A stretch of 64,000 nt of DNA from Ostreococcus lucimarinus (lineage: Eukaryota): the NCBI GenBank assembly GCA_000092065.1, contig CP000596.1; one strand, written 5' to 3'. Made by a program: the position numbers and the translations under genes. Below, one piece after another: positions 5,784-64,000 of this stretch (positions are counted from its first letter, which is position 1; each line of letters starts with the position of its first letter). The notes under the pieces are model-generated. The model made no database searches and was not told where the DNA came from. It worked only from the letters and a program-made list of their open reading frames with translations.

Positions 5784-8630
5784 TCACGCGAGCTCGCTCG
5801 CGACTTCGCTCGGGAGTAAATTGGCGGATTTCAGGGCGTCCGTGGCGTCGAGCTTGATGATGGCGGCGCCCAGAGCCAAGGGATCCGAGCGCTTGGGTAA
5901 ATCGTTGACGGCGATGCGGTTGGAGATTCCGCCCGTGGTGGAGAGCAATACTTCATCCGTGACGTCGTCGCCGATGCGGTCGACGAGAGTGATGGTGGCC
6001 AGGGCGTCGTCGTCACCCTTTTTGAATTTCATGCACATGACGCCCGAGCGACCGCGGCCGAGCAGGCGGTACGAGTTCGCGGCGACCACTTTGCCTTTAC
6101 CTTTCTTCGTCGTAAATAAGATAAACGGACCGAATTCTTCGCTCGCGGACACCATGCGTTCACCTGGGACGATAGCCATACCGACAGTTTTCGGCGGCAA
6201 AAGTTCGCCGTCGTCTTCGTCGTCGTCTTCGTCGTCGCCCGCGTCTTCGACGACGGCTTCTGCCACCTTCTTCTCGCCCATGGTTTTGATGCCCGAGATT
6301 GGCCTGCACGCCGACTTCACGACTCGGAAGTCTCCGACACGGCAGTGAAGGATGAGCCCTTTTCCAGCTTTCCCGGTGCCTGTGATGAAGAGATGGTCGG
6401 ACGTGCGCGCGAACATCACTTGCTGCAACCTATCGCCCTTGTCGAGCGTGATCACCTTCTTACCCTTGTGCCCGAGCATGGACGCCGCGGACGCCACGGA
6501 TACCTTACCTTGGCTTGTTAACATCACCACCACTTGGTCGTCCGCTACTTCACCCTGTTTCATGTTCGTCGACAACATGGCGGTGACGTTTTGGTTGCGC
6601 TTTGCGAACGTGTTCAACAGACTGGTCGCTGGAACTCCTATCGTGTTCAGTTCGGATTGCGGAATCGCCTTCGCACTGAGCTTTTGGACTCGCCCTCGAT
6701 CGGAGAAGAATAATATTTGATCGCTGTCTTTGCAGTGCATGGCTTTGGAAAGCTCATCGTTGGCGCGGAGCTTGCTCATGCGCTTCCCTCGAGTGCCTCG
6801 ATTCTGCGCGCCAAAGTTCTTCGGGCAGATGCGCTTGACGTATCCACGCTCAGAGAGGGTCAAAATATTATCCTTTGGTGGCGAATCGTCTTCGACGCCG
6901 CTTAAAGATTCGATTTGCTCGACGGACGTACGTCGAGGACGCGCGAATGCCTCTTTCGCCTCCATCGCCTCTTGCACGAGGACGTCGATGACCTTTGACT
7001 TGTTGCTCAACAAACCTTGGAAGTGTGCGATCTGCTCGTTCAACTCCTTGAGCTCGGCGTCTAACTTATCCGCCTCGAGTCCGGTTAATCGACGAAGCGG
7101 CATGGCGAGAATCGAGTCGGCTTGGATGTCGGACAAACCGTGCGATTCGCGCAACTTTTTCGACGCCGACGGGCCGTCTTTCGATTTTCGGATAATCTTC
7201 ACCACTCCATCCGCGTCGGCGAGCACGATCGAGAAGCCTTCAACGAGATGCTTGCGATCTTGCGCCTTTGAGAGCATAAATCTCGTCCGTCGCTCGATCG
7301 TATCGACGCGAAACTTGATGAACTCGTCGAGAATCTGGCGAAGAGGCATCACCGTCGGCTTGTTGTCTATGAGCGCGACGTTGTTCACAAAAAACTTCAC
7401 TTCGAGCTTCGTCTTGGCGTAAAGCTCCTCCAGCACGCTCGCTGCATCATATCCACGCTTAATCTCGATCACGACGCGCATGCCATCGCGATCGCTTTCG
7501 TCGCGAATATCACTGATGCCGTCGATGGTGCGCCCGTTGACGTGGTCGGCGATTTGTTCCACCAACCTCGCCTTGTTGGTTTGGTAAGGAATCTCGCTGA
7601 TCACCACCGCGTCCTTATCCAGCGAACCGCGCGCCGCCGACACGCGCTCGATCGTCGCCCGCCCGCGAAGCGTCACCCCGCCCTTGCCGGTTTCGTAAAT
7701 TTCCTTCATCCCGCTCTTATTCGTCACCACCCCGCCCGTGGGGAAATCCGGCGCCGGCAGCAACGCCATGAGTTCGTCCAACGAGCAATCCGGGTTTTTC
7801 GCCAGCGCGCACAGCGCATCGACAGACTCACCGAGATTATGCGGCGCCATGTTCGTCGCCACCGCCACCGCGATCCCACTCGAGCCGTTGATCAAAAGAT
7901 TCGGCACCCGCGCCGGCAGCACCTCCGGCTCCGTTTGACTCCCGTCAAACGTCTCCGTGAAATTCACGCACTCGTTCCCGATGTCCGCCAACAACCCCTT
8001 CTCCGCCAACTTATTCAATCGGCACTCCGTGTAACGCATCGCCGCCGGCGGATCGTCGTCCAACGACCCAAAGTTCCCGTGTCCGTCCACCAACGGCGCC
8101 GACATCGAAAAATCTTGCGCCAACCGCACCAGCGCCTCGTACACCGATCCGTCCCCGTGCGGGTGATACTTCCCCAGCACGTCTCCCACCACTCTCGCGC
8201 ACTTTCGGTGCGGTTTATCCGCCCGCAATCCCAGCTCGTGCATGCCGTACAGGATCCTTCGATGCACCGGCTTCAGCCCGTCGCGCGCGTCCGGCAGCGC
8301 TCGCCCCACGATCACGCTCATCGCGTACGACAGGTACGACGTCTTCGCCTCGCTCGCCAGTTCAACGTCGATGATCTTCTCCTCCGCGCTTCCCGTCGCC
8401 GTCGCGTACGTTCGCGTCGCGCGTCGCGCCGTCGCGCGCGTCGTTCGCGTCGTCGTCGGTTTGAAATTTGAACCCATCGCGCGTCTTCGCCAACTTCTCT
8501 CGCGCGCGTCGCGCGTCGTCGCGCCTCGCGCCCGCGCGACGTCGCGCGCGGTCGTCGCCATCGCTCGACACGCGCGCGCGACGACGGACGCGCTCGAAGC
8601 GCCGAACGACCGCGCGCTCCGCGTCAACAT
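5784..8630 (-). CDS. GYRA: DNA gyrase subunit A, organelle-targeted; ORF stays open to 8999 but the first ATG after a transit-like region is at 8630
   Basis: [27 protein letters not shown] with the active-site Tyr region, GyrA box (QRRGGKG-like RGTRGKR), C-terminal beta-pinwheel repeats; N-terminal S/T/R/A-rich presequence. Confidence 0.9.
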
Positions 8631-8675
8631 GCACCGCGGCGCGCAGTGCGGCGTCAGAGCGCGCCGCGGCGCGCC

Positions 8676-10331
8676 ATGAGCGCGCGCCTGCAGCCGTGGG
8701 CGAGCGTCCGGGAGTGGCGCGACGTCCGCGACGCGCTCGCGCGCGCGACGGAGGACGAGGCGCGCGGCGACGGCGCGCGACGCGGCGCCGCCGGGGACGT
8801 CGAAATCGACGCCGCGCTCGGCGTCGTGCGCGCGTGGCGCGCGCGCGGGCGCGCGCCGCTCGCCGCGGACGTCACCGCGATGCTCGTGCGCGCGTCGCGC
8901 GCGCGCGAGGGCGTCGATCGAGGCGACGCGGACGCGGCGCGGTCGGCGACGGCGATGACGCTCGCGAGACTGGTGAACGGCGTCGTCGACCCGAAGCAAA
9001 AGGGACGGTACGCCGCGCCGATCGCGACGCTGGCGCGAGAGGTGGGACTGCCGCGATTTTTAGTGGATCTGCGACACGAGTGCGCGCACGGGACGATGCC
9101 GAGCGCGGGAGCGCTGCGGAGGGGCGCGCGGCGAGCGTTGGCGTGGTGTCGACGATGGTATTGGGACGAACAGGCGCGGGCGTTCGACGCGGCGTTCGAA
9201 CGCGTGCGGGGATGCGTGCGAGCGATGTGCGCGTGCGAAAAAGACGCGAGAGGGCTGCGGGCGCGGGAGGGACGGGGCGCGGTGGAGTCGTCGAGCGAGG
9301 AGATGGACGAGGACGGGGCGAGCGAGGGCGAAAACGCGGGACGGGAGAGCGAGGGCGGGACGTCGTTTAAGGACGTGCGAGAACGACGACGACGGGCGAT
9401 CGGAACGTTGAGCAGCGTGTGTCCGAAGGGCGCGGCGCACGTCGTGGCGGAGGCGTTGCTCGACGGGGGGTGGCTCCGCGTCGTGGAGGACGAGACGGCG
9501 AGCGACGTCGACGACGCCGACGAAGCGACGTTTCGCGCGAGCGCGGAAGATTGGCGGCCGACGCTCGAGCGACTGTGTCAGAAATGGACCGGTTTGTTCG
9601 CGTATCTGTTCGACGCCGCGATTCGAGGCGAGAAACCGGGAAACGATGTGGGGTTTCAAACTTTGTTGAGCGTCGCGGCGAGCGGCGACTTCGCCGCGAA
9701 CGGCGATCAGCGCGTCGCCGCGTTCCACGCGTGCAAACGCGCGCTCGCGAGCGTGCACGAAGACGATTGGAGCGATGACCCGGCGGTGGCGAAGAGAACG
9801 ATCCGGACGCTGCAAAAAATTGCCGGCGTGTCAAAGGATGAAATCAAATCCGCGTCGCGTCGCGGCGCGGCGCCCGCGGACGCGCTCGCGAGCGCGAGAG
9901 CCGACATCGAGGCGCTTCGCGCGACGCTTCAGTCCGGTCGTAAACGCAAGCGCGATTCGCGCTGGGAACGGGCGGAAGATTGGACGCCGTCACCCATAGG
10001 CGTCGTCGCGGGCGTCTCGGCGCGCGCGTTGGTCGACGTCGCGCCGTCGTCGCGAACGATTCGCGTCACATCCGGTGTCAGCGCGTCGAGCGACGCGGGG
10101 TATCGAAGCGCCACGAAATCGGCGACGTATCCACGCGGCGACGACGGTGACGACGACGACGCCGCCGACGACGACGAGGACGAAAACGACGACGAGGACG
10201 AAAACGACGACGGCGGCGAACCGTCCGAACGCGTCGGCGTCGCCGCCGCGCTCAACGTCGCCGGCGGTCGCGTGGAGCTCTCAAAATCGCAAGCCGCCGC
10301 CGTGGCGGCGTCTGTGGCGTGTCTGCTTTAG
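8676..10331 (+). CDS. LAS1: LAS1-like pre-rRNA processing nuclease
   Basis: [69 protein letters not shown] matches the Las1 core (fVNgllDp.Qkg.yA.S...A...GLP.wfVdLRH..tHe.lPsL..L...a..AL.WL...YW); track start 8646 is GTG, ATG at 8676. Confidence 0.65.
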
Positions 10332-57599: not shown

Positions 57600-59873
57600 T
57601 CACGCTTCGCTGACGTTGCCGAGCAAGCTCATGCCGGACCTGTCTTCGATTTCCTCGAACCCGATTCCTCGCGGCGGGTTGGGGGGGATCTCGCCGAGCA
57701 AGTCGCGGCGGTCGAGGATGATTTCCAAATCTTTGTCGGAGATGTTGGCGGACTGCGGTGAATCCTCGTCGTTGGCGCCGGTTTCGCCCTTGAGGAGAGC
57801 CATGAGTTCGTCAGCGCCGAAAGCGCGACCGTCGTCGTTTTTCTCTTGTTTGAACCCGCCGTTGGTGACGACGAGCTTCTCGAGAGCGAGCTTGGAGGCG
57901 GCTTTTTTGAGCATTTTTCCTTCGACGGATTTCGCCGTGGCCAAGCGGTAGACGTGCACGGGCTTGGTTTGACCGATTCTGTGCACGCGATCCATCGCTT
58001 GCAAATCTTGATGCGGGTTCCAATCGCTGTCGTAAATGATAACGGTGTCACCGCCCGTGAGGTTGATGCCTAATCCTCCCGCGCGGGTCGAGAGCAAAAA
58101 GATGCCGTACTTCGGGTCTTCGTTGAATCGAGCGATGAACTCGCGACGGTCGTCTTGTTTCACCGAGCCGTCGATTCTGCACACCGGTTCGCCGCGCTGT
58201 TGGAAAAATGATTCGAGCAAGTCGAGCATGCGCGTCATCTGAGAAAAGATCAACACCTTGTGTCCGCGCGCGCGCAGGCGCGTCATCAACCTATCGAGGA
58301 GCTGCATCTTCCCGCACTGTTCCACGAGTTCGTCCGCGGAGGGGAACATGATGGATCCGTCCAGACCGCCGGTGATCAAATCCGGGTGGTTGCAGTTTTT
58401 CCGCAGTTGCATGAGCATGTTGTTCACAGCGGTGTGACCGACGGGAATGTGGCTGTTGCCCGCGAATTTCGTCAGCATCTCGGTGATGGTTTTGTTCACC
58501 AACGCGTCGTTGAACTCTTTTTGCTTTGGAACCATTTGCGCGTACAAAAGAATCTCCTTCTTGCGCGGAAGCGAAAGCTCGACGTCGCCCTTTAATCGGC
58601 GCAACAAAAATGGTCGCAAAATACCGTGCAACTTGCTCACGACGCGCGCGCGATGCTCTTGTTCATTCTTATCGACCACCTCCTGCTCTTGCGATTCGTC
58701 GTTCCCGATGTTGTCGGCAAAGTCAAACCAAGATTGGAACTGCGACAGCGAACTGAAGACGTCTGGGAGCAAAAAGTGCAAAAGCGACCAAAGCTCGGGC
58801 AAGTTGTTCTGGAGCGGCGTGCCGGTGAGCAACAACTTGTTCGCGGTGGGAATGTACTTGAGCTCGCGAATGAGCTTGCAGTCAAAGTTTTTCAATCTGT
58901 GACCTTCGTCCACGACCAAGTACTTGAAGTTGTACTTGGCCAAAAACTTGCGATCGGCCATGACGACTTCGTACGAGGTGACGATGACGGGGAAATCGGG
59001 TTTGATCGGCGTCGACGTCGGCAAGAATTCGATTCGCTTCTCCGCGCGTTCTTGCCTCGTGCCGTGGTACAAAAGCACGGGAATCGACGGCGTCCAACGT
59101 TGAAACTCGCTCACCCAATTGCTCAGCGTCGATAACGGACCGATGACGAGATACGGTCCCAACACGCCCTTCGATCGCAAGTGCGATAAAAAACCAATCG
59201 TCTGCACCGTCTTCCCGAGACCCATCTGGTCCGCCAAGATTCCGTTCAAGCCGTTTTGATATAAAGAAATCATCCAATTCACCCCCTTGAGCTGATAATC
59301 CCGCATCGAACCGCCCTCCATGAGCGGCAGCATCTTTCTCGTCGCCTCCAACTCCTCGCTCTCGCTCATCTTTTTCCGCTTCTTCGTCGCCTTCGCCTTG
59401 TCCCCATCCTTCCCGTGCTCGTCCTCCAGCGTGTCCATCTGCTCGCTCAAAAACTGCGAATAAATCGTCGTCTGATCCAGCAGCGCGTCCAACTGTTTAA
59501 ACTTTTTATCGTCCAACTTCGTCGTCCCGCTCGCCGCCGCGCTCGCGTCCTCGCTCGCGCCCTTCCCGCCGCCCTTCCCGCTCGGCGACGCCACGCGCGC
59601 CTTCTGCAGCTCCGCCTCCGCCTCGATCGCGTGCGCCTCGATCCCCGTCAGCGCCGACGCCGTCAGATCATCGTACGATTCCTCCGCGTCCGCGTTCACT
59701 CGCACCAGCCCCCCCCCGGCGCCGTCGTCGTCGTCGCCGTCCCGTTCCGTCGTCGTCATCATCTTTTCCCGCGCATCTCCCCCCGCGTCGTCGTCCTCGC
59801 GCGCGCTCTTCGCCGCGCCTTCGCCCGCGATCGGCGACGACGCCTTGCGTCGCTTCGCCCCGTTCGGCGCCAT
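57600..59873 (-). CDS. DDM1: SNF2-family chromatin remodeller, DDM1/LSH (HELLS)-like
   Basis: GILADQMGLGKTVQTIGFLSHL...LVVDEGHRLKN...LLLTGTPLQNNL...Helicase_C (LIFSQMTRMLDLLE...STRAGGLGINL); no chromo, bromo or SANT domains and a short N-terminal region as in DDM1/Lsh; track start 60017 is GTG, ATG at 59873. Confidence 0.75.
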   Translation of the reverse strand: MAPNGAKRRKASSPIAGEGAAKSAREDDDAGGDAREKMMTTTERDGDDDDGAGGGLVRVNADAEESYDDLTASALTGIEAHAIEAEAELQKARVASPSGKGGGKGASEDASAAASGTTKLDDKKFKQLDALLDQTTIYSQFLSEQMDTLEDEHGKDGDKAKATKKRKKMSESEELEATRKMLPLMEGGSMRDYQLKGVNWMISLYQNGLNGILADQMGLGKTVQTIGFLSHLRSKGVLGPYLVIGPLSTLSNWVSEFQRWTPSIPVLLYHGTRQERAEKRIEFLPTSTPIKPDFPVIVTSYEVVMADRKFLAKYNFKYLVVDEGHRLKNFDCKLIRELKYIPTANKLLLTGTPLQNNLPELWSLLHFLLPDVFSSLSQFQSWFDFADNIGNDESQEQEVVDKNEQEHRARVVSKLHGILRPFLLRRLKGDVELSLPRKKEILLYAQMVPKQKEFNDALVNKTITEMLTKFAGNSHIPVGHTAVNNMLMQLRKNCNHPDLITGGLDGSIMFPSADELVEQCGKMQLLDRLMTRLRARGHKVLIFSQMTRMLDLLESFFQQRGEPVCRIDGSVKQDDRREFIARFNEDPKYGIFLLSTRAGGLGINLTGGDTVIIYDSDWNPHQDLQAMDRVHRIGQTKPVHVYRLATAKSVEGKMLKKAASKLALEKLVVTNGGFKQEKNDDGRAFGADELMALLKGETGANDEDSPQSANISDKDLEIILDRRDLLGEIPPNPPRGIGFEEIEDRSGMSLLGNVSEA

Positions 59874-60203
59874 CGTCGCGCCGTCGCGTCGCGTCGCGTC
59901 GCGTCGCGGCGTCGCGCGCGCGTTTGACGTCGACAGCCGACGTCGATCGTTCGAAACGCGCGCGCGCCCGTAATGTTCGCGCCTTTGGATCGTCGCGGCG
60001 GTCGCGGTCGCGGGCACGAAAACGCGTATTGTATGCGTTTTTCGTGCATTGTTGTCGATGTTTGTACTTTTTTTATCCGACTGTCCGACTGTCCGAACGA
60101 TGATTCAAAATCCACCGGCCCCGCGCGTCAGAGGTCGTCGGATCGATCGAACGCGCGCGCGCGCGCGTCGAGCGAACGAGCGCGCGCGTCGCGGACGCGG
60201 ACG

Positions 60204-60743
60204 ATGTCGACGATGTCGATGATGCCGATCGCGTCGACGTCGGCGCGAACGACGCGAACGCGCGCGCGCGCGCCGAGAACGACGCAGACGCGGGCGCCGC
60301 GGATGAAGATGGGGCGGGCGACGCGAGCGACGACGCGGACGCGGGCGATCGCGAACGAGGCGCAGACGAGCGAGGAGTTGAACTTTTGGGGGAAGATGCG
60401 ACAGGCGTATCGAATCTTTTTCCCGCCGAGCGCGGAGGAGAACGCGCGGAACGAGGCGAAGAAGCGCCTGCGAATGATTCTCGTCGCCGATCGGTGCACG
60501 ATGAGCGAGAGCTCGATGGACGAGATGAAGGCGAAGATAATGACCGTGGTCGGGGAATTCGTGGACGTGGACGATTCGCAGGAGGTGGACGTGAGCATGA
60601 ACACGGATGAGGAGTTGGGGACGATGTACGCGGTGTCGATTCCGGTGAAGCGCGTCAAGGCGGAGTACGACGCGGAGAACGACGCGTACATGTTGGGGGC
60701 GCAGTTCGTGTACGACGACGAGAACGTGTGGGACGACGAATGA
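60204..60743 (+). CDS. MINE: plastid division topological specificity factor MinE
   Basis: KKRLRMILVADRCTMSESSMDEMKAKIMTVVGEFVDVDDSQEVDVSMNTDEELGTMYAVSIPVKRVKAEY parallels plant/cyanobacterial MinE (LKMILFSDRC...VxVPVRRVK); S/T/R-rich transit peptide; ATG at 60204. Confidence 0.8.
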   Translation: MSTMSMMPIASTSARTTRTRARAPRTTQTRAPRMKMGRATRATTRTRAIANEAQTSEELNFWGKMRQAYRIFFPPSAEENARNEAKKRLRMILVADRCTMSESSMDEMKAKIMTVVGEFVDVDDSQEVDVSMNTDEELGTMYAVSIPVKRVKAEYDAENDAYMLGAQFVYDDENVWDDE

Positions 60744-60868
60744 TTAATTTTACTCGCGCATCGAGCGACGGGCGACGGACGGCGCGCGCGCGACGCGCGT
60801 CGATCGAGGCGACCGCGACCATTGTAAGCAAATCAAACGACAGACGGACCGCGTCACTTCGCCTCGCG

Positions 60869-61441
60869 ATGTCCGACGCGCGCGCGGCGTCGGGGCTCGA
60901 CCCCAAAACGTGGGCCGGCGCCTTCGACTGCGCGCGGTGCGCGCGCAAGCGCCTGCCCGCGATCGAATTCAGCAAAAAGGCGCTGCTCAGGATGCGCGAG
61001 CGCGGCGACGATGCCGGGACGTGCAAGGCGTGCGTCGACGCCGAGGCCGCGATCGAGCGCGCGCGCGCGAGGGAGAGCGCGAGCGCCGTCGACGACGACG
61101 CGGACGCGACGTGCGCGGCGTGCGGGGCGACGAAACCGGCGAGCGCGTTCTCGAAGACGCAGCGGCGCGGCGCGGCGCCGCGGTGCGGCGAGTGCGTCGA
61201 CGCCGCGGCGAGGGACGACGCGGCGCGCGGCGCCGCGGCGCTGGCGAAATCGTTGGAATCGGCGAGGGTCGACGCCGCGAGGGTCGGGGCGACGCTGGGG
61301 GATCACGTGCGAGAGACGAATCTGGACGCGGAGGCGGTGACGGGGTTGCGGGCGAAGTTCGTCGGCGCGCGGGGACGCGGACGCGGGCGAGGACGGTCGG
61401 CGAATCCGAACTCCATGCTCGGCCGAGGGGGGCGGAAGTGA
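60869..61441 (+). CDS. small zinc-ribbon-like protein with two CxxC...FSK...CxxCVDA repeats and an RG-rich C-terminus
   Basis: DCARCARKRLPAIEFSKKALL...GTCKACVDAE and TCAACGATKPASAFSKTQRR...PRCGECVDAA; C-terminal GRGRGRGR; ATG at 60869 (track start 60728 is GTG). Confidence 0.4.
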   Translation: MSDARAASGLDPKTWAGAFDCARCARKRLPAIEFSKKALLRMRERGDDAGTCKACVDAEAAIERARARESASAVDDDADATCAACGATKPASAFSKTQRRGAAPRCGECVDAAARDDAARGAAALAKSLESARVDAARVGATLGDHVRETNLDAEAVTGLRAKFVGARGRGRGRGRSANPNSMLGRGGRK

Positions 61442-61522: not shown

Positions 61523-63736
61523 CTATTCGTCTCGCGCCCAGACGTCGCTGTAGACTCCGGGACGCGAGCTCTTCGGCGGATTGGCGCGACGACGAATGTA
61601 CGGCCCGCTCGATCTGAACCGACCGGTGCCGTCGTCGGGGAGCGCTAAAGCGACGTCACCGATGAGCGGGGTCGCAGCCTCGGTCCTGTCGGTGCGACGT
61701 CGATTGAATGAAATGGTTGAATCGTCGTCGTCGTTGACGCTGTACGAAAACGCCTTGACGGGCTTGTGCGTCGCCGTGCCGAATTCGTCGGCATGTGTGA
61801 TGTACAAGTCTTCATCGAACGCCAAAAGATCGACGTCTTCGTCTTCGTCGTCGCCGTCTATGATGCCGTAATCATCGACGTCCCGGTTGAACGCGCGACG
61901 AAGCGTGCACACGCTCGCCGCGACGAACGTGATCAACACGACGACGGAAAAAGACAGGAAACGCCAGACATCCGCGTTGACCTGCGCCGAGGCGCGCTTG
62001 TACACTCGAACGTAGTCGACGTAATGAAACATGTCATCGTCGCACTGATTGAGCGCCGCAGGCATGCCGAACGGCGACACCGCGGTGTTCAGGATGAGAT
62101 AAAACGGCCATCGCGGAATGATGGGCACATTAAAGCGCGTCAAGTGATGCACGGGATGACCGTCGACGGTGAACGTCAAGCTATCCTTCGACCACTCCAC
62201 CGCATACGTGTGGAAATCCGCGCTGAAATCGATCGCGGGGTCCATCATGGGCGGGTACGCGCTTCGCGAGAAGCCTTCGGCGCCGCACTCCGCCTTTGGG
62301 GCGAAATGATATCCCGATTCCACCGTTCCCGCACGCGTCCCGGGCCCGCCCAAACCTCTGCCGTACGACTGCATGATGTCAATTTGCCCGCCAAGCGGCC
62401 AGCACGCGCGCTTCGGCACGCTCTTCTCGGGGTCAGGTAACATCCAGTGCTGCGGCCAAACGCCCGGACACTTGGACTCGGGAATCTTCGCGCGAATCTC
62501 AACTCGCCCGTACGTTTGCGTGAACGCCTCTTTCGTGTCCACCCAGCACGACAGGAACGGATACTGATCACCGCGACCACGATGACCCACGGCACCTCCG
62601 TGTGGCGTCGCGGCAGTGCGCACGCCTCGCTGACGCCGCGTCCCGATGACGAGCGCGCCGTCGACGACTTTACACATCTCGGGAACGTAAAACTGTTGCT
62701 GTCCGCCGTGTCGCTCTAAACCTGGCGCGCTCTCGTTCACCTTCGGTCGCCATTTCGATAAATCTAACGCATCACCGTCGAACTCGTCGCTGAACGTCAA
62801 CTCCCATCCCGGCTGTCTCGCGTCCTTCGACGAGGCGCCCTTCGTCGACCCCGGCACGCTTTGCGGAAACCCACGTCGAGGGGTCGCGCCCGCGCGCCGC
62901 CGCGCCGCCGCGCGCTCTTTTATCGCCGCCGCGTTCGCTGGCGGTCGAGTCGGCATCGTTCTCGCCGCCGACGGCGCGTCTTCTTCCCCTCCCGTCGCGC
63001 CGTCGCCCGCGCCGGCGAGCGCGTCTCTCGCGCGACGCAGCGCCTCGTCTGGATCCTCCAACGCCCCCAGCGCCGCCTCATCGCGTTCTCTGCGCATTCG
63101 CGCCCGTCTAATTTTCATCATCTGTCGCTTCGTCGGCGCCCTCGCGCCCAACCGCGCCGTCGAACCGCCCGCGTCGTCTTCGTCCTCCTCCTCGTCCTCG
63201 TACGCCTCCTCGTCCTCGTCCTCGTCCGCCCCGTACATCTCGTCCGGATCGTCCGGCGCCTCGTCCTCGACGATCCTGCGCATCAACGCGTCGTCCATCG
63301 TCCCGAACCGCGTCCCCGCGCTCGCGTCGACGTACCCCGGCGCGTCGCCCGCGTCGTCCCGCGCGTTGGGTGTTGCGTCTCGCGTCGTCCCGTCCCCGCC
63401 CGCGCCTTCGCCCGTCGCGCGTCCCGATCGCGCCCTCGCGAGCGTCGCGAGCGTCACCGCGCACATCGCCGCCCGCGCGCGACGCGACGTCGCGCCGCGC
63501 GTCGCGCGCCGCGATCGGCGCCGCGTCGAATGCGCGGCGTCCATCGCCTCGCGCGCGTCGTCCCGCGTCGACGTCGTCGCCGTCGGTCGCCGCGCGCCGC
63601 CGCGCGCGTCGCCGCCGTCGCGCGTCACGCGCGCGACGTCGCCGTGTGTCGCGCGCCGCGCCGCGCGACCGACGACCGACGCCGCGCGCGGGATGTTGGC
63701 GCCGCGCATAAAACCAATCGCGCGATTCGTTCGCAT
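61523..63736 (-). CDS. glycoside hydrolase family 16 (laminarinase-like) domain protein with a C-terminal TM anchor; catalytic motif degenerate (QIDIMQ); true start uncertain (possibly 63466)
   Basis: WELTFSDEFDGDALDLSKW, PGVWPQHWMLPD, WPLGGQIDIMQSYGRG and FHTYAVEWSKDSLTFTVDG match GH16 laminarinase blocks; TM FLSFSVVVLITFVAASVCTL near the C-terminus; long low-complexity N-terminal extension. Confidence 0.55.
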   Translation of the reverse strand: MRTNRAIGFMRGANIPRAASVVGRAARRATHGDVARVTRDGGDARGGARRPTATTSTRDDAREAMDAAHSTRRRSRRATRGATSRRARAAMCAVTLATLARARSGRATGEGAGGDGTTRDATPNARDDAGDAPGYVDASAGTRFGTMDDALMRRIVEDEAPDDPDEMYGADEDEDEEAYEDEEEDEDDAGGSTARLGARAPTKRQMMKIRRARMRRERDEAALGALEDPDEALRRARDALAGAGDGATGGEEDAPSAARTMPTRPPANAAAIKERAAARRRAGATPRRGFPQSVPGSTKGASSKDARQPGWELTFSDEFDGDALDLSKWRPKVNESAPGLERHGGQQQFYVPEMCKVVDGALVIGTRRQRGVRTAATPHGGAVGHRGRGDQYPFLSCWVDTKEAFTQTYGRVEIRAKIPESKCPGVWPQHWMLPDPEKSVPKRACWPLGGQIDIMQSYGRGLGGPGTRAGTVESGYHFAPKAECGAEGFSRSAYPPMMDPAIDFSADFHTYAVEWSKDSLTFTVDGHPVHHLTRFNVPIIPRWPFYLILNTAVSPFGMPAALNQCDDDMFHYVDYVRVYKRASAQVNADVWRFLSFSVVVLITFVAASVCTLRRAFNRDVDDYGIIDGDDEDEDVDLLAFDEDLYITHADEFGTATHKPVKAFSYSVNDDDDSTISFNRRRTDRTEAATPLIGDVALALPDDGTGRFRSSGPYIRRRANPPKSSRPGVYSDVWARDE

Positions 63737-64000
63737 CGCGCGCGCGTTTTACCCCATCATCGCGCGTTCGCGTTCGCCGACCCCGCGACGCGCGTAAATT
63801 CCGAGATGGGCGTCGCGAGGCGCGGAATGCGCGATCACCGATCGACGGCGTCGATGACCGATCGTGGGAATCGCGGTTACGGGCGCGACGCGCGATCGCG
63901 GAATTCACGCGCGCGCCGGCGCGAACCCCGCGGGGCGACCGGCGGCACATCGTCGCGCGTCGCGGAGCACTCAGGACGCTCTTAAGAAGGCAACGCGCGA

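Follow-up and report, generated by a model that had tools for sequence, protein, structure and literature searches.

Can a protein built on the fold of a laminarinase still cleave a glucan when glutamine occupies both of its catalytic positions, and what would such a protein do if it cannot? The question is raised by a minus-strand open reading frame of 737 amino acids in a 64,000-nucleotide stretch of contig CP000596.1 of the picoalga Ostreococcus lucimarinus (the window; G + C content, 62%). The first-pass annotation of this frame had recognised a GH16 (glycoside hydrolase family 16) domain without catalytic glutamates and had proposed a membrane-tethered, inactive module, possibly a glucan-binding lectin or receptor. 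The analysis described here showed that glutamine at both catalytic positions is real, fixed and conserved. The product is probably a non-hydrolytic, glycan-binding, receptor-like type I single-pass membrane protein whose ectodomain is a pseudo-glycosidase.

The four sequence blocks initially taken as GH16 signatures (FSDEFDGDALDLSKW, GVWPQHWMLP, WPLGGQIDIMQSYG, which contains QIDIMQ, and FHTYAVEWS) are all found in the reading frame. The codons of the Q-I-D-I-M-Q stretch are read at 62386..62369, inside the interval 62341..62400 where it had been placed: caa for Q451 (62386-62384), att for isoleucine (62383-81), gac for D453 (62380-78), atc for isoleucine (62377-75), atg for methionine (62374-72) and cag for Q456 (62371-69). 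Active retaining glycosidases of this type carry E-x-D-x(x)-E, with the nucleophile and the acid/base glutamates at its two ends; here these are Q451 and Q456, and the 737 residues contain no E-x-D-x(1,2)-E string at another place. The register of the motif, which the annotation had left to be confirmed, was checked by alignment to solved laminarinases and by a multiple alignment. A phmmer search against all PDB chains gave as best match the Thermotoga laminarinase 3AZX (E-values of 1.4e-26 to 1.8e-26), followed by 4DFS, 6T2N, 2VY0 and 6XOF; the best matches to laminarinases span 1e-26 to 1e-18. The string 'wplggqidimq' pairs with 'wptcgeidime' of 3AZX, and the motif is placed in the same way in the other four. 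The MAFFT alignment comprised 130 sequences, namely the window domain, 19 further family members, 5 intermediates and the 105 nearest other GH16 sequences (the outgroup). Homologues had been searched with the domain only, which gave 726 matches; the whole protein gave 21, low-complexity words probably filling the candidate list. In the outgroup the three catalytic columns hold E, D and E in 105 of 105 sequences each, so that both canonical glutamates are indeed missing from the window protein, while the auxiliary aspartate D453 is shared by the whole outgroup and by 20/20 family sequences. Mis-registration of the motif was ruled out by the agreement of the five independent PDB alignments with the 130-sequence alignment.

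The assignment of the domain to GH16 does not depend on the motif. Pfam PF00722 matches the reading frame with an E-value of 1.9e-10 (40.9 bits against a cutoff of 22). The AlphaFold2 model of the domain, built from the 130-sequence alignment, reached a predicted local distance difference test (pLDDT) of 91.2 and a predicted template-modelling score of 0.90, whereas the 20-sequence family alignment alone gave a model with a pLDDT of 51, which was not usable. When Foldseek was run with the good model, the top matches were all GH16 proteins, GH16_3 laminarinases (E-value 6e-24, template-modelling scores 0.63-0.81). The β-bulge spacing of the EXDXXE type and a conserved histidine on the strand adjoining the catalytic strand are features of GH16_3 (PMC6827312); the spacing is present in Q-I-D-I-M-Q, and the column of H477 holds histidine in 104 of the 105 outgroup sequences. 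Judged by sequence and predicted fold, the domain is a GH16 domain, and its nearest solved and unsolved relatives place it closest to GH16_3.

Each glutamine codon is separated from a glutamate codon by a single G-to-C change, as originally noted, and the region is rich in G + C (66%), which can raise error rates. Both facts would favour an origin of the two codons in sequencing or assembly error, or in a drifting pseudogene. However, an independent sequencing run (Logan SRR34521151) yielded contig L001, which agrees with the window at 99.87% of positions over 3 kb, and CAA and CAG also stand at these two positions in the sister lineage represented by contig L002. Within the cluster of sequences at 90% identity to the window protein, QIDIMQ was found in 14 of the 15 that were read, the remaining one lacking the region, and about 190 sequences from many assemblies, falling into 18 clusters, each retain the motif of their own lineage. 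The frame of 737 codons is intact. Measured against the sister lineage, the ratio of nonsynonymous to synonymous substitution rates (dN/dS) was 0.17 for the GH16-like domain, whose 300 codons differ by 9 changes, and 0.64 for the N-terminal region and stalk. Hence, the domain is under purifying selection. The neighbouring Stc1, MinE and SNF2 genes recur beside the gene in the sister lineage, and a complete MMETSP transcript shows that the orthologue in O. mediterraneus is expressed. Sequencing error, which had been named as a possible refutation, is not the case; it and the pseudogene were ruled out by the independent contig, the codons of the sister lineage and the dN/dS, and the probability left to them is negligible.

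The history of the catalytic positions was followed across the family, which consists of Ostreococcus members and of marine-metagenome lineages, the metagenome copies being labelled 'beta-glucanase (GH16 family)'. The orthologue of O. tauri (CEG00617.1/XP_022840479.1, here P0067), annotated 'Glycoside hydrolase, family 16', is 61% identical to the window protein and that of O. mediterraneus (UniProt A0A7S0KJI2, derived from the transcript) 51%. When 1.84 billion representative proteins were searched with a profile, only about 10 family clusters were retrieved, separated from ordinary GH16s by a gap from E-109 to E-53. A viral origin, or the existence of prasinovirus homologues, was ruled out by a search of the IMG/VR viral contigs, which contained no relatives of the family. 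The Ostreococcus clade has QID[IV]MQ or QIDIMR. A second clade, presumably from other, Micromonas-like Mamiellophyceae, mostly keeps Glu451 and has EIDIA[AS], EIDIMA or EIDIMQ, with QVDVAA in P0020 inside it. P0337 and P0130 have EIDIAG, and the most divergent orthologue, P0338, has DIRVAQ, read in the context G-G-D-I-R-V-A-Q. Among the 20 aligned family sequences the nucleophile column is evenly divided (Q10, E10) and the acid/base column holds Q8, A7, S3 and R2; in no family member is the acid/base glutamate present, its place being taken by Q, A, S, R or G. Asp453 is kept throughout, except in P0338, where nucleophile, aspartate and acid/base have all changed and the AVESGFHF strand, the transmembrane helix, the tail motif and the Stc1 neighbour are kept.

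A neighbour-joining tree places, in order from the outgroup, P0338, then P0337 and P0130, then the two main clades, and therefore the acid/base glutamate would have disappeared in a single event at the root of the family. Judged from the aligned motifs, this position now drifts (Q/A/S/R/G), as expected where a residue no longer matters, and the nucleophile appears to have changed later and clade-specifically, from E to Q at least twice and from E to D once. A nucleophile column restricted to E and Q among the 20 sequences, together with an invariant Asp453, is as expected for residues kept for shape and hydrogen bonding. The comparison of E and Q in orthologues thus supports the loss at the acid/base position, which is never E, and gives a mixed answer for the nucleophile, which is E in one clade; of the initial description the single-nucleotide differences hold, but the picture of two parallel E-to-Q hits was too simple. 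The mean domain identity is 0.80 within the Gln451 clade and 0.82 within the Glu451 clade, and therefore loss of the nucleophile did not relax the constraint on D453, E473, H477 and the tryptophan platforms.

The changes in the cleft were analysed by transferring the ligand contacts of the laminarinase SCLam (PMC7961093) through the 6XOF alignment. W129, W139, D146 and H163 of SCLam correspond to W431, W446, D453 and H477 and are kept. N53, which hydrogen-bonds the glucose at subsite −2 (PMC7961093), is lost (G344); T161 of subsite +1 is changed to G475; and Y52 corresponds to the variable position 343. The signature of the −2 subsite in GH16_3, N-N-E-L-Q-x-Y together with an arginine before YTSG, is absent: N344 is replaced by G, the glutamate of NNELQ by Q346, the arginine by Y392 and Y394 by F, each replacement being found in 19-20 of the 20 family sequences against the original residue in 92-103 of the 105 outgroup sequences (N344 column, N in 103/105 against G in 19/20; E346 column, E in 103/105 against Q in 19/20). 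Q346 and Y392 are family-wide. With these residues of subsite −2 replaced, the glucan binding proposed in the first-pass annotation loses support, and β-1,3-glucan cannot be taken for granted as the ligand. The scaffold of the cleft is intact, with the platforms Trp427, Trp431 and Trp446, Asp453, His477 and the calcium-site residues, and the family has gained three invariant glutamates absent from the outgroup (E341, E473 and E483) and six cysteines of the same kind. As far as the alignment reveals, the cleft is remodelled, beyond mere inactivation.

Glu473 lies on the strand next to the catalytic one. It is present in 20/20 family sequences and 5/5 intermediates and in 0/105 of the outgroup, where the position is mostly H (50), Y (29) or V (12); only 2 of about 125 canonical E-D-E enzymes have glutamate there. 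Pairwise HMMER alignments with 3AZX, 6XOF and 6T2N gave three different registers across residues 470-480, and one of them, pairing 'gtve' with 'gtah' of 3AZX, would make Glu473 the replacement of the GH16-conserved histidine. That assignment was rejected, as the multiple alignment puts H477 in the histidine column (104/105), a register that agrees with the AlphaFold2 strand 472-478. E473 corresponds to Y147 of the Thermotoga maritima enzyme and to H159 of SCLam. According to DSSP, strands 162-168 and 183-189 of the model (residues 451-457 and 472-478) form a β-hairpin, in which H477 is predicted to face position 451, G475 to face D453 and E473 to face Q456.

This geometry suggests an alternative, not considered in the first-pass annotation, in which enzymatic function persists at a non-canonical site, the acid/base having moved from position 456 to Glu473 on the neighbouring strand. 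Members with Glu451 would be normal retaining glycosidases or transglycosylases, and those with Q451 would need Asp453 or substrate assistance. Consistent with a relocation are the presence of E473 in all 25 family and intermediate sequences and none of the outgroup, the coincidence of acid/base loss and E473 gain at the base of the family, and the invariance of Asp453 and His477. The strand register also fits, 451 + 477 and 453 + 475 both giving 928 and 456 + 473 giving 929 with the β-bulge, as do E132/H151, D134/T149 and E137/Y147 of 3AZX and the two strands of the model. Myrosinase (GH1), moreover, functions with glutamine at the acid/base position. However, the nucleophile is likewise absent from the window protein, and glutamine cannot form the glycosyl-enzyme intermediate. 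P0338 has lost Asp453 too and yet keeps E473 in a site where catalysis is very unlikely, and E473, D453 and H477 are equally constrained in the Gln451 and Glu451 clades, which points to a shared non-catalytic role. The two canonical enzymes with glutamate at this position make the residue non-diagnostic. We know of no report of an acid/base relocated to the neighbouring strand in GH16, and on balance an enzyme of this kind is improbable; for the Glu451 clade it can be imagined, for the window protein with its Q451 it is unlikely.

The topology of the protein was deduced from the segments flanking the domain (Table 1). Translation probably starts at M65, the preceding codons being a 5' leader in frame; the NCBI-annotated O. 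tauri protein begins about 30 residues ahead of the hydrophobic N-terminal segment, which matches M65. Gene callers applied to metagenome copies picked differing starts, giving proteins of 647-737 residues. The segments of the orthologues aligned with the N-terminal hydrophobic one are clearly signal-peptide-like (FTLVLLLLLVCCTSVSSS in P0013, MGVVIVVVVAVMCAG in O. tauri and GVFVLAFAMAVMPMT in P0009). The stalk that follows is composed of alanine (21%), arginine (18%) and aspartate (11%) to a large extent, and the Pfam search of the protein found no domain in it or anywhere N-terminal of the GH16 domain. Its strongly acidic run (DEMYGADEDEDEEAYEDEEEDEDD) precedes a basic stretch (KRQMMKIRRARMRRERDE), and this acidic-then-basic order recurs at the stalk position of the aligned orthologues despite poor sequence conservation.

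After the domain, a hydrophobic segment aligned with the transmembrane helix is present in all full-length family members. The anchor that the first-pass annotation had called C-terminal is a membrane tether (residues 594-612, Kyte-Doolittle 2.36), but it is not C-terminal, as a conserved tail of 125 residues follows it. Of 15 family sequences inspected for it, 14 have the core of the tail motif, P0337 (GGVKLRMP) and P0338 (GGVTLRLP) among them. The tail also contains an acidic-dileucine sequence (EDVDLL), but the clade as a whole does not conserve it, and it was discounted as a signal. The six family-specific cysteines suggest disulfides and therefore a non-cytosolic domain. Taken together with the transmembrane helix, the tail and the signal peptides of the orthologues, they indicate a type I membrane protein with the domain outside the cytosol and the tail inside.

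Table 1. Position of the GH16-like gene, its segments and its neighbours (window coordinates, except for the last two lines)
Feature	Residues	Coordinates	Strand	Remarks
Whole open reading frame	737	61523..63736	minus	ATG to TAG, uninterrupted; span includes the stop codon
5' leader (MRTNRAIGFMRGAN...)	first 64 codons	63545..63736	minus	absent from the O. tauri protein as annotated
Probable start codon ATG	M65	63544..63542	minus	
N-terminal hydrophobic segment AAMCAVTLATLARARSGRA	89-107	63416..63472	minus	Kyte-Doolittle 0.67; probable signal peptide
Low-complexity stalk with acidic run DEDEDEEAYEDEEEDEDD and basic helix-like stretch	108-289	62870..63415	minus	fast-evolving
GH16-like β-jelly-roll domain	290-589	61970..62869	minus	Pfam, phmmer against PDB, AlphaFold2, Foldseek
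G344-G-Q346-Q-Q348 (−2 subsite)	344-348	62693..62707	minus	replaces laminarinase N-N-E-L-Q; multiple alignment
Degenerate catalytic strand Q451-I-D453-I-M-Q456	451-456	62369..62386	minus	E-I-D-I-M-E is the GH16 norm
Neighbouring β-strand V472-E473-S-G475-Y-H477-F478	472-478	62303..62323	minus	E473 codon gaa, 62320..62318
Single transmembrane helix LSFSVVVLITFVAASVCTL, then RRAF	594-612	61901..61957	minus	top Kyte-Doolittle window, 2.36
Putative cytoplasmic tail	613-737	61526..61900	minus	125 residues, D-rich, acidic, conserved blocks
Tail motif P690-LIGDVALALPDDGTGR-706 (window version PLIGDVALALPDDGTGR)	690-706	61619..61669	minus	core G[DG][IV]xLx[LM]P
Stc1-domain gene		60728..61441	plus	PF12898, E 1.4e-7; tail-to-tail (convergent) with the GH16-like gene
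MinE homologue		59973..60743	plus	PF03776, E 1e-15; presumably plastid-division factor
SNF2/ISWI-type ATPase gene		57600..60017	minus	PF00176, E 1e-81, and Helicase_C
Stc1-position neighbour, contig L003		3079..3711		
Stc1-position neighbour, contig L002	196	8187..8777		un-annotated gene

The correct registration of the motif, the absence of both glutamates, the conservation of the family, the membrane tether and the purifying selection are together best explained by a protein that binds a ligand or acts as a receptor without hydrolysis. The gene would encode a type I membrane glycoprotein of the secretory pathway or the cell surface, with a luminal or extracellular domain derived from a GH16_3 laminarinase-type endo-glucanase that would no longer be a canonical retaining hydrolase. 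The isosteric amides of Q451 and Q456 would keep the shape and hydrogen bonding of the site without turnover, and the cleft, by analogy with engineered E-to-Q glycosidase mutants and with natural pseudo-glycosidase lectins, may bind a glycan uncut. The polar set formed by Q451, D453, E473, H477, E483 and Q346 would define a ligand unlike a plain β-1,3-glucan chain, and the tail motif PLIG[DG]VxLxLPxDG may couple occupancy of the cleft to a cytoplasmic partner, by signalling or sorting.

Several points weigh against this assignment. The signal peptide is weak in the window protein itself. The equivalents of N344, E346 and R392 in the −2 subsite are lost, and the binding of a carbohydrate is what we infer rather than observe. 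One clade retains the nucleophile glutamate and so may still be enzymatic. Glu473, which is invariant, specific to the family and placed across from Q456 in the prediction, may represent an acid/base that has shifted, although the closeness of the two residues is predicted only from the hairpin register and the DSSP assignment. Finally, insect βGRPs bind glucan largely through a separate N-terminal domain, so that a degenerate GH16 domain need not bind.

The loss of sugar-binding polar residues at subsite −2 would also agree with a protein that is not a lectin, in which the fold serves as a platform, either as a secretory-pathway scaffold or cofactor in glycan or scale/coat assembly, in the manner of Kre6/Skn1, or as a protein-protein module. 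Ostreococcus is wall-less and an endogenous β-glucan substrate is not obvious, and Pfam SKN1/KRE6 (PF03935) gives a weak match of 28.3 bits, confined to residues 509-586. Nevertheless, this match lies below the cutoff of 30, and ordinary bacterial GH16s show the same faint similarity. The topology, with the transmembrane helix after the domain, is opposite to that of type II Kre6, and the invariant residues (W427, W431, W446, D453, H477 and E473) sit in the cleft, as would fit a ligand bound there. A non-lectin role is thus doubtful, and membership of the Kre6/Skn1 group was ruled out by the sub-threshold score and the wrong topology.

Comparison with known systems places the protein between several of them. 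Its best matches in sequence and structure are the GH16_3 laminarinases (T. maritima TmLam 3AZX, T. petrophila 4DFS and SCLam 6XOF), with which it shares the β-jelly-roll, the x-I-D-I-M-x β-bulge, the WP..G motif, the tryptophan platforms, the histidine of the neighbouring strand and the calcium-site residues. It differs from them by glutamine at both glutamate positions, the replaced Asn, Glu and Arg of subsite −2, Gly475 instead of the +1 threonine, 'SP' instead of 'GG' after AV, the six extra conserved cysteines, a longer hairpin loop (GRGLGGPGTRAG) and the fusion, in a eukaryote, of the domain to a transmembrane helix and cytoplasmic tail. Fungal Kre6/Skn1 (GH16_2, PF03935) are likewise eukaryotic, membrane-bound GH16-like proteins of the secretory pathway, but in Kre6, a type II protein, the cytosolic tail is N-terminal and the transmembrane segment precedes the domain. 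The GH18 chi-lectins, such as YKL-40, retain a glycosidase fold and glycan binding although another residue, often Gln or Leu, has taken the place of the catalytic acid; they would have followed the same evolutionary route, and differ in being soluble TIM barrels.

Non-catalytic GH16 homologues with mutated catalytic residues serve in glucan binding and recognition (PMC6827312; PMC6403176). In the invertebrate βGRP/GNBP proteins (GH16_4), one or both catalytic glutamates have been lost and recognition has replaced hydrolysis (PMC6827312; PMC6403176), and the window protein resembles them as a conserved, expressed, GH16-derived homologue without catalytic glutamates. In contrast to these soluble animal haemolymph proteins, which are GH16_4-related and usually possess a glucan-binding domain of their own at the N terminus, the window protein comes from an alga, has GH16_3-like bacterial enzymes as its nearest relatives and is anchored in the membrane with a conserved tail, and the Pfam search found no recognisable extra carbohydrate-binding domain in it. 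Mycobacterium tuberculosis Rv0315 (GH16_9) is another naturally inactive homologue with a non-enzymatic role; its inactivity is attributed to an open groove unable to bind oligosaccharide chains, the conserved catalytic Glu-176 being present (PMC4606783). The two cases differ, since the window protein has lost the catalytic residues and conserved the cleft scaffold. Catalytic residues are missing in about 9% of GH16_4 but in only 0.7% of GH16_3 (Viborg et al., PMC6827312), and therefore a whole conserved clade beside GH16_3 is unusual, although not unprecedented in principle.

The neighbourhood of the gene is conserved beyond the sister lineage in one respect: an Stc1 gene also lies beside P0338, so that its pairing with the GH16-like gene persists across a deep divergence. 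The mechanically defined reading frames of MinE and SNF2 overlap by about 45 nucleotides (59973..60017), and at least one of their starts is probably located further in. Long Arg/Ala-rich reading frames, of up to 374 residues, occupy the opposite strand or another frame of the GH16-like gene at 62861..63985 (plus), 63108..63950 (minus) and 61766..62440 (plus); at a G + C content of 66% they look like compositional artefacts and not genes. Two gene models of the family also deserve comment. P0339 (488 residues, more than 100 contigs) has matches only to the N-terminal stalk and to the initial third of the domain and ends in '...YPFVSCWVVRISH'; it resembles the first exon of an orthologue with introns, from a lineage close to P0013, which a prokaryote-style caller has extended into the intron. 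P0002 (L002, 6001..7998) leaves the frame of the tail after 'DLLAF' and ends early, at 665 residues, whereas P0037 (708 residues), of the same cluster, has a normal tail with the PLIGDVALALPDDGTGR motif, and the frameshift probably stems from an indel introduced in the assembly of a single contig.

Conversion of a dead enzyme into a binder is known elsewhere, as in animal βGRP/GNBP; what is distinctive here is the architecture of a membrane receptor, in Ostreococcus and related picoalgal lineages. A literature search on GH16-like proteins in Ostreococcus or Micromonas returned nothing relevant, and no membrane-anchored, tail-bearing, clade-wide family of GH16 pseudo-enzymes was found in the literature searched. 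The database names 'glycoside hydrolase' and 'beta-glucanase' are probably wrong as to function, and such labels would mislead carbon-cycle studies and censuses of carbohydrate-active enzymes into counting the protein as a laminarin-degrading enzyme. The family also offers a natural series for the passage from glycosidase to binding protein, in which the acid/base was lost first and the nucleophile then changed from E to Q twice and from E to D once, while Asp453 (P0338 excepted), His477 and the new Glu473 stay fixed.

Few eukaryotic phototrophs of the sea are as abundant as Ostreococcus and its picoalgal relatives, and to our knowledge almost nothing is known of picoalgal surface receptors. 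A more specific proposal, unlikely as it stands, is that the protein is a glycan-sensing receptor of wall-less picoalgae, with Glu473 as a new ligand-contacting or catalytic residue of the remodelled cleft and with relay through the PLIGGVxLxLP tail; diatom laminarin-type glucans or bacterial and viral surface sugars would be its candidate ligands, with the same small likelihood. In a conceivable variant, members of the Glu451 clade would still be active enzymes whose acid/base has moved to the adjoining strand. The significance of the family would rise if a ligand, a receptor function or the relocated catalytic acid were demonstrated. If the receptor proposal is true, picoalgae would have made a lineage-specific innate-recognition or nutrient-sensing pathway out of a dead laminarinase.

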